Assembly: GCA_036985855.1 (NCBI GenBank)
Contig: BTQL01000003.1
Span: 18,967-82,966 of the forward strand
Source: Acidimicrobiia bacterium
GTDB lineage: Bacteria > Actinomycetota > Acidimicrobiia > Spongiisociales > UBA5794
Length of the DNA: 64,000 nt
Reading direction: 5' to 3'
Within the stretch, counting starts at the first letter, position 1. The number at the start of each line of letters is the position of its first letter. Positions 35,027-40,721 of this stretch are shown here, piece by piece. Both the position numbers and the translations under genes were made by a program. The notes under the pieces are model-generated. The model ran no database searches. It was not told the DNA's origin and saw only the letters and a list, made by a program, of their open reading frames with translations.

Positions 35027-36172
35027 CTAGATTCCCATCCCTCTTCCGATGATCTCTTTCATGATTTCGGTTGTACCGCCATAGATCGTTTGGACTCTGG
35101 CATCGACATAGGCCCTGGCGATCGGATATTCCATCATGTAGCCGTAGCCGCCGTGCATCTGGACGCCCATGTCGACAACTCTGCAGAGCATCTCGGTCGT
35201 CCACCACTTTGCTTCGGCCGCCTGCTCGATCGAAAGGTTGCCTTCGATGTGCTCCTGGAGAAGTCGGTCGACGAAAACGCGACCGATGTCAACCTCGGTC
35301 TTTGCCTCTGCCAGCCGGAATCGGTTGTGTTGGAAGCGCCCGATGGGGCGACCGAACGCCTCGCGCTCCTTTGCGTAGTCCAAGGTCAGACGGAGAGCTG
35401 CCTCTGCGCCTGCGACTGCGCCTATCGCGATCGACAGCCTTTCTTGGGGGAGGTTGGCCACGAGCTGGGAGAACCCCATGCCCTCCTCGCCCAGCCGATT
35501 GGCAACCGGAACCGCTACGTCGTTGAAGAACAGTTCTGCGGTGTCCTGGGCGTGGAGGCCCATCTTTTCGAGGTTTCGGCCGCGCTCGAACCCATTCATA
35601 CCGTCTTGAACCACGAGCAACGTCAAGCCGGCGTGTGGATCATCGGAGGTGCGAGCGACGATGATCACGAGGTCAGCGTTGATGCCGCTCGATATGAATG
35701 TCTTCGAGCCATTGAGGACGTATGTGTCACCCTCGAGTCTCGCGGTCGTCGCGATGCCTGACAGATCCGACCCTGTTCCTGGTTCTGTCATCGCGATCGC
35801 GGTCATCAGGTCGCCGTTGGCGAGTCCCGGCAACCATCTGTCCTTCTGCTCCTCATCGCAGTAGGTCAGGAAGTAGGGCACACAGATGTCGTTGTGGAGC
35901 GTTATGCACATGCTCGACGATCCCGCTCCGCCGCCTGTGAACACTTCGGTGATCACCGCGTTGTATCGGAAGTCGTCAACCCCTCCGCCGCCGTGCTCTT
36001 CGGGGATGGCCATGCCTAGCAATCCTGCCCGGCCTGCTTTGCGGAACATCTCTTTGTCGACCTTGCCGTCGTGTTCCCACTGGTCGACGTTCGGCAGGAT
36101 CTCCTTCTCCATGAATCGCTTAACCGACTGGCGGAACAGCTCGTGGTCTGGTTCAAAGACTGTGCGTCGCAT
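35027..36172 (-). CDS. Acyl-CoA dehydrogenase (long-chain type)
   Basis: AMTEPGTGSD, GSKTFIS, QDTAELFF, LPQERL, R.AFG..IG.FQ, HGGYGYM.EY, IYGGT.EI. Confidence 0.95.
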   Translation of the reverse strand: MRRTVFEPDHELFRQSVKRFMEKEILPNVDQWEHDGKVDKEMFRKAGRAGLLGMAIPEEHGGGGVDDFRYNAVITEVFTGGGAGSSSMCITLHNDICVPYFLTYCDEEQKDRWLPGLANGDLMTAIAMTEPGTGSDLSGIATTARLEGDTYVLNGSKTFISSGINADLVIIVARTSDDPHAGLTLLVVQDGMNGFERGRNLEKMGLHAQDTAELFFNDVAVPVANRLGEEGMGFSQLVANLPQERLSIAIGAVAGAEAALRLTLDYAKEREAFGRPIGRFQHNRFRLAEAKTEVDIGRVFVDRLLQEHIEGNLSIEQAAEAKWWTTEMLCRVVDMGVQMHGGYGYMMEYPIARAYVDARVQTIYGGTTEIMKEIIGRGMGI

Positions 36173-36229
36173 GGGGCCACGCTAACGCGTGACGGAGCAC
36201 AGAGAAGAGACCGCTCGGTTGAATGGCCA

Positions 36230-36258
36230 TTGACAGGAGGCGACGACGGCGCGAGATT
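36230..36258 (+). promoter_or_regulatory. Sigma70-like promoter with no downstream + strand CDS
   Basis: TTGACA-N17-GAGATT (perfect -35, imperfect -10). Confidence 0.5.
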
Positions 36259-36264
36259 GGAGAT

Positions 36265-36426
36265 ACACAACAGATTTGAGACCGGCCGCCGTGTCGACAG
36301 AGGATCAACACGAAGGCAGATGCCGGAAGCATCTGAAACCCACGTCGGTTAACGGCAGCGATCAGAACGCCGTCACGGTGGGTCGGTTTGCATGAGAGGG
36401 ACCTCGGTGAGGTCCCTCTCTCTCGT
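36265..36426 (+). ncRNA. Candidate structured non-coding RNA (~160 nt)
   Basis: Closing stem AGACCGGCCGCCGTG/CACGGTGGGTCGGTTT, apical CAGATGC-CGGAA-GCATCTG, promoter upstream, terminator downstream. Confidence 0.55.
36394..36426 (+). terminator. Intrinsic terminator
   Basis: GAGAGGGACCTC-GGT-GAGGTCCCTCTC, 12-bp stem followed by TCTCGT. Confidence 0.8.
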
Positions 36427-36482
36427 CCATACCCAGACACGACGACTTTGACCGCAGGAGTGTCCGTGGCCAACCGTCCGAT

Positions 36483-37862
36483 CTAGATCGGTTCGAACCT
36501 CGCCGTGAAGTGGCGCAACCACGCTGCCTGCTCGACAATGCGATAACCGCCCAACTCGCCGGCGCGGTTTGCGACGTCGATGACGACCTCGGCGACGTAG
36601 TCGATGTGGCTCTGGGTGTATGTCCTTCGTGGAATCGCCAAGCGCACAAGTTCCATTGCGGCACGTTCGTCCGGCCCACCGTTGGGATCGCGGCGTCCGA
36701 ACATCACGGATCCGATCTCGACCCCGCGAACACCGCCGGCTCGATACAGCTCGATTGCCAGGGATTGGGCCGGGTATTCGTGTGGCGGAACGTGCGGAAG
36801 GAGGGCAGCAGCGTCGAGATATACCGCATGACCTCCTGAAGGCTGGACGATGGGCATTCCACCATCGCTCACGGTTTTCGCGAGGTATGCCGTTGAACGA
36901 ATCCGGTACCGCAGGTAGTTCTCGTCGAGCACCTCGTTGAGTCCGACCGCCAACGCTTCGAGGTCGTAGCCGGCGAGCCCGCCGTAGGTGGGGAATCCCT
37001 CGGTCAAGATGAGGAGGTTGCGAGCGTTCTGCGCCCATTCGGCATCGTTGAGGGCAAGGAATCCGCCGATGTTGCTGAGGCCGTCCTTCTTCGCCGACAT
37101 TGTTGCGCCGTCCACATAGGAGAACATCTCTCGAGCGATCTCGCGAGGGGTCTTGTTCTCGTATCCATCCTCTCGCATCTTGATGAACCAGGCATTCTCG
37201 GCAAAACGGCAGGCATCGAGGAAGAGCGGGATCCCGAATTCGTCGCAGACCTTCCGTGCGGCACGAACGTTCGCCATAGACACCGGTTGGCCGCCACCGG
37301 AGTTGTTCGTCACCGTGATCATCACGAGGGGAACACGATCTGTGCCAACCTCCTCGATCGTGGACCGAAGCCGGTCGATGTCCATGTTTCCCTTGAACGG
37401 GAGGATCGTTGCCGGGTCCGTGCCACCGGGGATGACGATGTCCCTGGCCTCGCCGCCCTGAAACTCCACATTGGCACGGGTAGTGTCGAAGTGCGTGTTG
37501 TTCGGTACGACATCGCCTTCTTCCACGGCCACGCTGAAGAGGATCCTCTCTGCCGCACGGCCCTGGTGGGTTGGAATGACATGGTCGAAACCGGTGATGG
37601 CCTTGACCGTCTCCTCGAAACGGAAGAACGACCGGCTTCCGGCGTATGTTTCGTCGCCTCGCATCATTCCAGCCCATTGATCAGAAGACATTGCTCCGGT
37701 CCCCGAGTCAGTGAGAAGATCGATGATGACCTCGTCGGCGTGGAGTCCGAACAGGTTGTATCCCGCTCTGTCGAGAGCGGCTTCCCTCGTCGCGACATCG
37801 GGCAGGTCGATAGCTTGGACGGTGTGAATCCGGAACGGTTCGATGATGGTCTTGTAGTCCAT
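36483..37862 (-). CDS. tnaA: Tryptophanase
   Basis: IDLLTDSGT, THQGR.AE, HFDTTR, MSAKKD PLP Lys, LRHFTARF (His here, whereas tyrosine phenol-lyase has FF). Confidence 0.92.
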   Translation of the reverse strand: MDYKTIIEPFRIHTVQAIDLPDVATREAALDRAGYNLFGLHADEVIIDLLTDSGTGAMSSDQWAGMMRGDETYAGSRSFFRFEETVKAITGFDHVIPTHQGRAAERILFSVAVEEGDVVPNNTHFDTTRANVEFQGGEARDIVIPGGTDPATILPFKGNMDIDRLRSTIEEVGTDRVPLVMITVTNNSGGGQPVSMANVRAARKVCDEFGIPLFLDACRFAENAWFIKMREDGYENKTPREIAREMFSYVDGATMSAKKDGLSNIGGFLALNDAEWAQNARNLLILTEGFPTYGGLAGYDLEALAVGLNEVLDENYLRYRIRSTAYLAKTVSDGGMPIVQPSGGHAVYLDAAALLPHVPPHEYPAQSLAIELYRAGGVRGVEIGSVMFGRRDPNGGPDERAAMELVRLAIPRRTYTQSHIDYVAEVVIDVANRAGELGGYRIVEQAAWLRHFTARFEPI

Positions 37863-38852: not shown

Positions 38853-40643
38853 TTAGGGAGAGGTCGTTGTCGTTGTCGTTGATGTTGTAGTCGATGTCGA
38901 TGTTGTCGTTGTTGATGTGGAGGTGGTCGAGGTCGAGGTGGTCGAGGTCGACGTGGAACTGGACGTTGACGTCGTGGGCTCTGGAGCATGTGTGGTCGTG
39001 GTGGTGTCCGGATCAGGTTTCGGTTTCTTGTAGTTCCAGGTCCACTGCTGAGTTGTCACCGAACCGTCCGGATGGGCCATCACTCGCGTGACCGTGTTGC
39101 CGACACGTTCAGCGGTACACGTGCGACCGCCGTTGTTTCCGAAGAAGGTGACTGTTATCGACGTTGGTGTGTACGTCGTATCGATGTAGACGATCGCATC
39201 TGAGTCGTTCCGAAATATGACGTCGGGAAGCGGGAAACCGAGAGTGGCTTCGCGCACAAACGGGTAGCGACTGAAGTAGAGGCTGTGAGGCTGGTGCAAG
39301 ACATCTTCGTAACATCCAAAGAACACGGCGTTGTAGAACGTTGTTGCGAACTGGCTCGTTCCGCCGCCGATATTGATCTTGCTGTCGCAGCATTGGATCC
39401 GGCCATTGATGATCGCACCGGCGCGTACATATCCACCGGCCGAGGTCCGCTCGCCGGCAGTGTCGTTGATCGAGAAGGTCTCTCCGGGCATGACGATCGA
39501 ACCGCCGACCGCGTCTGCGAGGAGTTGGATGTTCGTGACTCTGCTCCGGCAGCATGGGTGATTGGTGGTGAAGCTCGAAACTTCACCAAGTGGGCCCATG
39601 GCCTCTGCCATCTCCGTTGTGAACACTGCCTGTTCCCCGTCTGTCATCGGAATGGTTCCTTGGCCACTCCCCTCAGCCGCGGCGGATACGATCTCCGGGA
39701 TGCGTGCCAGGTCCACCTTCTGGCCGATGACAGACGGAACGACGGACAGCTCGCGGGTCTCTTCATCGAAAGTGAAGGTCGCGTCGATGGGTGGAACAGT
39801 GAAGCTCTCAGCGGATCGCGCGGCTATTTCGCGCAACGTATCGTCATCGAGGGTGATCTGAAGGACCGCGGGCGAATGATTCACGATCTCACTCCTGAGG
39901 GCGTTCGCCAGGCCGGTCGGTGTGAACACGATGGTTCCTGGTTGGTTCGGTGCAGCGAGAATGACGGCCGAATCGATGAGTCTGGATGCTTTGGCGACAG
40001 CCGCGTTCACGTCGGCGTTGGTGATCTCAGGGTCGAGCGGTACCAGGGGCAATACTATCGGCACACGGTCGATCCTCGAGAGCTGCTCACGAAGGAGAGG
40101 GATCGACGCTTCTACGTCGATGCGAAGGCCAGCTTGGGGATACTCCGGTACCACGGTTCCATTGGAGATTCTCACTGTGCCTTCGAATGCGGGCGTGTCG
40201 AGCACGCTTCTGGTCCAGTTGTCGAGGATACCGGCGATTGCCTGCTCGTCGATCGTGGTGGGAACGTCAACTTCGATGGTTGAGGTGAACGTCCCTGCCC
40301 AGAGCCTGAGGTTCGAGAAGAAACCAGTGGATCTCCTGGTTGTCATGGCATCGGTTGCAACCGCTTCCTCGTCGATTTCGAATCCGACATCTTCGGGGTT
40401 GAGAGTCAGCTCGTTACCTTCTACGACCACAGTGAGCGGTCTTGAGACAAGGCTCGCCTCATAGGAGGCGAGCAACCCGGTGGCGTCGCTGTACGTGAGG
40501 CGGGAGAGATTCATCTCCGCGGCGGTCACGCCCCGGCTGACTCGCTCAGCACCGATCATCTCGTCGCTGGCATACCCGGTTGCGACGAACGCGACCGCAA
40601 GCAGCGGGATCGTGACTGCTGTCGCGATGATGTAGCGGCGCAT
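38853..40643 (-). CDS. VanW-family protein with peptidoglycan-binding (PG_binding_4-like) region and Thr/Ser-rich tail
   Basis: N-terminal anchor, R.TNI.L, PGETFSIN, GGG.SQFATT.YNA, HSLYFSRYP..REAT, D..F.N; poly-Thr C-terminus. Confidence 0.88.
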   Translation of the reverse strand: MRRYIIATAVTIPLLAVAFVATGYASDEMIGAERVSRGVTAAEMNLSRLTYSDATGLLASYEASLVSRPLTVVVEGNELTLNPEDVGFEIDEEAVATDAMTTRRSTGFFSNLRLWAGTFTSTIEVDVPTTIDEQAIAGILDNWTRSVLDTPAFEGTVRISNGTVVPEYPQAGLRIDVEASIPLLREQLSRIDRVPIVLPLVPLDPEITNADVNAAVAKASRLIDSAVILAAPNQPGTIVFTPTGLANALRSEIVNHSPAVLQITLDDDTLREIAARSAESFTVPPIDATFTFDEETRELSVVPSVIGQKVDLARIPEIVSAAAEGSGQGTIPMTDGEQAVFTTEMAEAMGPLGEVSSFTTNHPCCRSRVTNIQLLADAVGGSIVMPGETFSINDTAGERTSAGGYVRAGAIINGRIQCCDSKINIGGGTSQFATTFYNAVFFGCYEDVLHQPHSLYFSRYPFVREATLGFPLPDVIFRNDSDAIVYIDTTYTPTSITVTFFGNNGGRTCTAERVGNTVTRVMAHPDGSVTTQQWTWNYKKPKPDPDTTTTTHAPEPTTSTSSSTSTSTTSTSTTSTSTTTTSTSTTTSTTTTTTSP

Positions 40644-40721
40644 GATCCTCCCTGGCACCGGTAGGACAGGGATTGTATGCCATGTGCGCCGAAAGTAGGG
40701 CTTTCGGCGCTTGTCGGTTCC

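Follow-up and report, generated by a model that had tools for sequence, protein, structure and literature searches.

A lineage-restricted, free-standing structured small RNA gene of Acidimicrobiia predicted by comparative sequence analysis

6S RNA is built as a rod in which a large bubble lies in the middle, between the closing stem and a long distal stem-loop, and this architecture mimics open promoter DNA. The mycobacterial Ms1 RNA is about twice as long as the small RNA (sRNA) analyzed here, and the raiA RNA measures ~200 nt. SreA and SreB of Listeria, EutX of Enterococcus and Rli55 of Listeria are trans-acting sRNAs that bear a riboswitch, with known aptamers (SAM, AdoCbl). Large surveys of RNA motifs feed Rfam, and marine Acidimicrobiia are common in the ocean. 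Motif surveys in the literature include PMC1950547, PMC2864571, PMC5737381 and PMC6429828. The raiA motif is presented as an orphan structured ncRNA that came from comparative genomics (PMC10861870), a SAM-I riboswitch/sRNA is reported for Desulfovibrio (bioRxiv 10.1101/803072), and the Streptomyces sRNA scr5239 is given as a 159-nt RNA that acts by base pairing to mRNAs (PMC4365011). No sRNA or RNA motif of Acidimicrobiia was found in a full-text search of the literature evaluated at the level of abstracts, and within the scope of that search no regulatory RNA was found described for the marine, uncultured members of this class.

The locus that we compare with these systems lies at positions 36230-36429 of the plus strand of the window (the whole 64,000-nt stretch of DNA that was analyzed), in a 310-bp gap (36173-36482) flanked by two minus-strand genes. 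Pfam searches assigned one of them, divergent from the element, to the acyl-CoA dehydrogenases (35027-36172), and the other, convergent with it, to the beta-eliminating lyases (36483-37862, tnaA/tpl-like); both genes lie outside the element. The parts of the locus are arranged in the order promoter, folded domain and, last, a terminator hairpin of 12 pairs. Judged by these signals, it is a structured small RNA gene of ~160 nt, predicted to be transcribed independently from its own promoter to its own terminator. At the sequence level we found what marks a generic free-standing bacterial sRNA gene, i.e., a promoter, a terminator, a non-coding character and a conservation that is separate from that of the neighbours. 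The homologs differ by indels of 1-2 nt and by pairwise compensatory substitutions, and therefore no coding potential is attributed to the sRNA gene. The sRNA and its hairpin occur once each, in the window as well as genome-wide. An earlier note on this DNA had proposed a free-standing structured ncRNA on the plus strand between fadE and tnaA. The promoter, the terminator, the conservation and the covariation described below bear out this proposal, and the coordinates and elements that it listed were accurate within a base or two, so that small corrections sufficed. With a probability of about 0.75, we consider that 36230-36429 (+) is an independent sRNA gene, the product of which would act in trans and would most likely be recognized in its folded form, by a protein or a small ligand.

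When the whole window was scanned with cmscan against Rfam 15 (4227 families), no match reached a gathering score. A scan of the segment 36100-36550 at E <=10 gave three chance matches on the element (HOTTIP_1, with 17.5 bits vs a gathering score of 50, mir-3957 and Plastid-ycf3), each below half the gathering score of its family, and eight diverse homologous loci scanned at E <=1 gave one unrelated match, located outside the element. Hence there was no match to 6S, SRP, raiA, tRNA or a riboswitch, nor to Ms1 or Y RNA, for whichever of these Rfam 15 holds a model. That the element is undescribed had already been suspected, and the cmscan check, which returned no family, agrees with this. The 6S model RF00013 (gathering score 46.4 bits) detected nothing in the source genome of the window or in the 133 genomes of its family, which has to be read knowing that the same model detects 6S in 4-5 of 14 control genomes; it also gave no match on 36100-36550 at E <=10 and none in the eight homologous loci at E <=1. 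A Y RNA (YrlA) is argued against, because no TROVE gene (PF05731, Ro60/Rsr) was found in the source genome, which is 89% complete, and no Rfam family was matched.

The comparison with the other described systems gave likenesses of general design. As in the raiA motif, the sRNA is intergenic, multi-stemmed and supported by covariation, its junction nucleotides are conserved, and it is not tied to one downstream gene; however, it matches raiA neither in sequence nor in structure, it is smaller, and it was detected in three genera of one family, whereas raiA is spread over phyla. With the riboswitch-bearing sRNAs it would share an aptamer-like folded domain that is followed by a terminator, in a small RNA acting in trans, but it matches no known aptamer, nothing points to a ligand, and its terminator shows no alternative pairing. 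The sRNA and scr5239 are both ~160 nt long, have their own promoter and terminator and are conserved within a limited actinobacterial lineage, but they are not homologous, and the conserved nucleotides of the sRNA described here lie inside a closed junction. The putative family falls among the free-standing structured sRNAs of bacteria, and is a previously undescribed one.

We then analyzed the distribution of the element. The core was detected by blastn of the gap, at 78-89% identity, in 8 of the 10 other genomes of genus g1, to which the source genome belongs, and in 0 of 30 outside this genus. The conserved block extends over ~36270-36425, and the sequence between this block and either flanking gene does not align. 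A covariance model (CM) built on nine sequences (R1) gave full-length matches in two further genera, and a model built on 21 sequences (R2) gave full-length matches of >=52 bits in 22 of the 133 family genomes, with one strong match in each, so that the homolog search in related genomes suggested by the earlier note was successful. These carriers are the source genome plus 8/10 in g1, 6/10 in g41 and 7/10 in g7; the sRNA was detected, then, in 3 of the 30 genera of the family. The remaining 16 family genomes that had an R2 match at E <=0.01 reached at most 35.3 bits, and R2 gave no match above 38 bits outside the family when it was run on 151 genomes sampled from the order and 151 from the class. 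Among the weak R2 alignments shown, seven of eight were essentially a GC-rich terminator-like hairpin, and the eighth (G016) was a true homolog. A match in G070 (97 nt, 32 bits) was left out of all the alignments. In metagenome contigs, a DNA pattern scan, which by design excludes sequences of the g41 type, detected 92 stretches; 80 loci were fetched, and five of them hold the full sRNA (68.5-165 bits). The 22 homologs from family genomes and the five metagenome loci constitute the set of 27 sequences, 26 of them distinct. Detection was patchy, also within the three genera and beside orthologous lyase genes: around the orthologous lyase gene of 12 hit-less genomes nothing above 11.6 bits was observed with the CM filters off (0/12 syntenic loci). 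Divergence beyond the reach of the CM is a possible cause of this narrow detection. G004 (L008/L010/L019/L034) also has, ~100 nt past the full copy and on the other side of a run of N, a second, partial 3′ copy of 59 nt (the 3′ strand of the closing stem plus the hairpin), probably an artefact of scaffolding.

The consensus fold, obtained with RNAalifold on nine sequences of genus g1, consists of a stalk, P1, that leads to a three-way junction in which P2 encloses the hairpins P3 and P4. All the coordinates of these helices refer to the plus strand. The closing stem P1 is formed by 19 pairs between its 5′ strand (36277-36296) and its 3′ strand (36371-36392). It is rich in G-U pairs (36280/36388, 36285/36383 and 36288/36379), and G-U pairs are kept in the homologs; over the 27 sequences, 13 of its 19 pairs changed on both sides and 89.6% of the cells paired. 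A plus-strand stem with G-U pairs had been proposed here before, and this part stood, but its extent, given as ~15 bp (36279-36293 with 36374-36389), had to be enlarged. P2 pairs a GAUC (36303-36306), which is part of a near-invariant GGAUC, with a second GAUC (36360-36363), as had been anticipated when two GATC segments were noted that could pair. In P2, 96.2% of the cells paired, and both-side changes were observed in three of the four pairs, albeit in few sequences, the helix being mostly conserved in sequence. P3 (36317-36335) corresponds to the apical CAGATGC/GCATCTG hairpin recognized earlier; it reads CAGATGC(C)/(A)GCATCTG, has 8 pairs and a variable loop of 3-4 nt, and showed compensatory changes in 7 of its 8 pairs in the model alignment of the 27 sequences. 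Between P3 and P4 lies the single-stranded J3/4 (36336-36343), with GA(A/G)ACCC conserved by column over the 26 distinct sequences. P4 (36344-36356) is a hairpin of the form GUCG-GUYAN-CGRC with a near-invariant GUCGGU and four pairs (36344-36347 with 36353-36356), of which one alternates between U-A, U-G and C-G; 96.2% of its cells paired. This fourth helix was absent from the list of the earlier note. The near-invariant nucleotides (GGAUC, GA(A/G)ACCC, GUCGGUYA and GAU) are located in and around the junction. A scan of 26 sequences for a pseudoknot or an extra helix returned merely promiscuous pairings of the invariant GUCGGU, none of them convincing. An alternative ACGGC/GCCGT arm, which had also been listed, is present in the source genome (36352-36356 with 36369-36373), but with 68 of 109 cells paired in 22 homologs it was rejected as a conserved feature.

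The plus-strand transcript (36266-36428) of the source genome folded at z = -2.95, and 1 of 200 shuffles was as good. In the alignment of the 27 sequences (26 distinct) 94.3% of 1196 cells paired, and compensatory change, i.e., change on both sides, was found in 33 of 47 pairs; as this alignment was fitted to model R2 and its sequences come from few lineages, fewer independent events lie behind these numbers than the cell counts suggest. None of 500 shuffles of this alignment reached any of five measures, and when the 3′ partners were slid by 1-3 columns as a control, 32.7-48.6% of the cells paired and 9-12 pairs were compensatory. Furthermore, P3, with 6 of its 8 pairs compensatory, was recovered from a structure-blind MAFFT alignment of 22 sequences, as were P4, part of P1 and the terminator.

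Upstream of the fold, a -35 hexamer TTGACA (36230-36235, +) is followed, after a 17-nt spacer, by a -10 hexamer GAGATT (36253-36258, +), which is of the GAnnnT type and lacks the usual first T. This TTGACA-N17-GAGATT had been read on the plus strand before, and it was confirmed at 36230-36258: T[TC]GACA, a spacer of exactly 17 nt and nAnnnT were present upstream of the sRNA in 27/27 homologs. In the -10 hexamer, the second position was A and the sixth T in 27/27, GAnnnT was found in 25/27, and the distance from its end to model position 1 varied between 1 and 20 nt. Transcription usually starts ~7 nt past the -10 hexamer, and a transcription start with a short, poorly conserved 5′ leader is predicted accordingly at 36264-36276 (+); the sigma-70-type promoter (TTGACA, 17 nt, GAGATT) would start transcription near 36265. 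The consensus promoter scan of the tool used, which requires >=9/12 matches, lists no site here. The motif TTGACA-N17-nAnnnT occurs 43 times genome-wide, where a rough estimate, not tool-derived, gave ~48 by chance; because the count is near chance, the motif alone is weak evidence, and it is its conservation that counts. Between g41 and g7 the spacer of the promoter is near-identical, TTGACAAACTmAGGAT...GCGCGACGGT (L021, L023 and relatives, 30-40 nt upstream of the sRNA), and a GCGC ahead of the -10 hexamer is common to g1, g41 and g7. The shared spacer and the GCGC could represent an operator or a special class of promoter.

At the other end, a hairpin of 12 pairs with a GGU loop (36394-36405 with 36409-36420, +) is followed by CTCTCGTCC, and a pyrimidine-rich tail extends to ~36429; there is no U run behind the hairpin. 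A 12-bp terminator with its pyrimidine tail on the plus side had been predicted, and it was found as such at 36394-36420. In the hairpin 99.7% of the cells paired, compensatory change was observed in 9 of 12 pairs, and it is on the plus strand that G-U pairs form. The hairpin starts 2-4 nt after P1 in all 27 homologs. In silico, it was present in the MFE fold of 27/27 homologs with 97% of its pairs kept, both with the 5′ strand of P1 free to pair and with it blocked. This constitutive, GC-rich hairpin (36394-36420) would end transcription. Hairpins built as GAGGGGCCCC-loop-GGGGCCCCTC are a recurrent feature of many genomes in the order (e.g., L039, L040, L049 and L052); they draw weak CM matches on both strands and look like a common terminator shape of the group.

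The sRNA was found in five different neighbourhoods. In g1, seven of nine loci have the arrangement of the window, i.e., a divergent dehydrogenase gene, the sRNA and a convergent lyase gene. In G006 and G008 an ORF of ~480-510 aa on the same strand as the sRNA lies between it and the lyase gene, which is ~2.5 kb away. These two ORFs (L012:1625-3160 (+) and L017:3-1457 (-)) are homologous and have no Pfam family, a weak hit to Yip1 (E = 9e-4) falling short of the cut-off. In g41 the sRNA is followed by a convergent lyase gene in four loci, by a convergent zf-UBP gene in one and by the contig end in one. In g7 the upstream gene, on the strand of the sRNA, encodes a cutinase. Downstream, a convergent gene for a cNMP-binding HATPase is found in five loci; one locus has a VanW gene instead, and in G016 the sRNA is followed by a convergent ORF that is unannotated. 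Orthologs of the lyase are present in 106 of the 133 family genomes, far more widely than the sRNA. The dehydrogenase gene has a TAnnnT (TAGCGT, 36179-36184, -) 6-7 nt before its ATG in 9/9 loci of the genus, which suggests a leaderless mRNA and a promoter belonging to this gene, back-to-back and divergent with that of the sRNA. In G129 the gene convergent with the sRNA is of the VanW/PG_binding_4 type (L025:1-1446 (+)), and a gene of this type is also found in the window (38853-40658, -), two genes beyond the lyase gene. This placement suggests that the loci go back to one old neighbourhood, altered later by insertions and deletions.

The position of the element between two minus-strand genes raises the alternative that the minus strand is the functional one, as a tRNA-like gene, as a 5′ leader of the acyl-CoA dehydrogenase gene or merely as the terminator of the lyase gene, whose stop codon is 62 nt from the hairpin. 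ARAGORN called a tRNA-Gly(tcc) at 36284-36359 (-), inside the sRNA element, and in the source genome alone the minus strand folded better (z = -4.34 vs -2.95 for the plus strand), so that the assignment of the strand rests on comparative evidence. RNAalifold gave the same architecture from both strands, but the same pairs were canonical in 94.7% of the cells on the plus strand vs 86.7% on the other strand. There were 95 G-U cells vs 14 A-C cells, an A-C cell being G-U on the other strand, and the G-U argument with which the earlier note had favoured the plus strand was borne out in this way. With RIBOSUM scoring, the RNAalifold energies were -89.8 (plus) vs -80.5 kcal/mol (minus) on the MAFFT alignment, and -118.1 (plus) vs -98.9 kcal/mol (minus) on the model alignment. 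These counts and energies, together with the promoter in 27/27 homologs, support the plus strand as the functional one. Those helices that only the minus-strand MFE fold contains were poorly kept across the homologs, and were rejected. The tRNA-Gly was called in 1 of 22 homologous loci, its supposed anticodon loop is the variable loop of P3 (GGA, ACU, ACG, UUC and others, in plus-strand letters), and there was no match to the tRNA model of Rfam; we consider it a false positive. The sRNA is not the leader of the dehydrogenase gene, because this gene has its own TAnnnT before the ATG, and the sRNA persists where neither flanking gene is adjacent. A function on the minus strand is thus extremely unlikely. 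On the plus strand, the element could act in cis, as a riboswitch or leader of a same-strand gene, or as a switch that lets antisense transcription read into the convergent gene. Its aptamer-like junction with invariant nucleotides, the terminator hairpin 2-4 nt behind P1, the same-strand ORFs of G006 and G008, and a convergent gene next to it in at least 18 of 22 loci would fit this alternative. However, a same-strand gene follows in just 2 of 22 loci, and there as an insertion, in keeping with the earlier argument that a riboswitch is unlikely where no plus-strand gene follows; the convergent genes come from four unrelated families; and the terminator formed equally in silico with or without P1 in 27/27 homologs, with no antiterminator alternative evident. 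Because the neighbours differ and the next gene converges in most loci, we do not take the sRNA for a leader or a riboswitch, and an action in cis appears highly improbable.

As to how a free-standing RNA of this size might work, the first proposal had been that of a compact 6S/Ms1-like rod with bubbles, which would bind RNA polymerase by mimicry of an open promoter. The sRNA resembles 6S RNA (RF00013; 150-200 nt) and Ms1 in that it is free-standing, in that a long closing stem pairs its 5′ end with its 3′ end, and in the unpaired, purine-rich strands beyond this stem; moreover, the role may be vacant, given that a model able to detect 6S in 4-5 of 14 controls found none in the 133 family genomes. 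The test for a rod failed, however: P1 opens into a three-way junction, and the distal helix past the supposed bubble, P3, has 8 pairs, too short for mimicking upstream promoter DNA. No Rfam family, 6S included, was matched. In addition, an intrinsic terminator directly after P1 forms part of the transcript, and the narrow and patchy distribution (3/30 genera and none in the other families sampled) is unlike that of a housekeeping regulator of RNA polymerase. This proposal was not sustained, and on the predicted fold it is very unlikely to be right. In another alternative the sRNA would base pair in trans with mRNAs through an exposed segment (GARACCC in J3/4 or the loop of P4), with the rest serving as scaffold and terminator. 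The promoter and terminator of its own, the length of ~160 nt, the single copy and the restriction to a lineage are typical of regulatory sRNAs, and conserved unpaired nucleotides do exist. But the conserved unpaired stretch is ~7 nt long and lies inside the junction that P1 and P2 enclose, conservation does not extend to the 5′ leader, and covariation over the full length is more typical of RNAs that are recognized by their shape; we regard such pairing as rather unlikely. Recognition as a folded object is more likely than seed pairing because the invariant nucleotides are in the junction closed by P1 and P2 and not in the 5′ leader, and a base-pairing sRNA or a cis regulator would, from the sequences, be less likely than such recognition. 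Hence, our preferred reading is that the folded junction would be recognized by a protein or a small ligand, as an RNP or a sensor RNA. This part of the reading is drawn solely from the location of the invariant nucleotides, and we hold it loosely. In these terms the sRNA would represent a lineage-restricted structured family outside Rfam 15 that is probably recognized via its invariant junction. It is a tentative and somewhat doubtful further step to see in the junction a binding pocket and in the sRNA a free-standing RNA of a new sensor or RNP class, i.e., a metabolite- or protein-binding aptamer-sRNA or even a new ribozyme, which would then be particular to the abundant, uncultured Acidimicrobiia of the sea.

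If the junction does bind a ligand or a protein, a new class of structured RNA would be at hand; if not, the sRNA would be another lineage-specific one. With its predicted promoter, fold and terminator, the gene is a defined object for mapping in metatranscriptomes, a bait for pull-down and a candidate Rfam family. The automatic annotation of the source genome may carry the false tRNA-Gly, as well as spurious ORFs over the intergenic region. ARAGORN also called a tRNA-SeC (tca) on the same contig, outside the window (G000:C3:2045-2139); if real, it would point to the use of selenocysteine.
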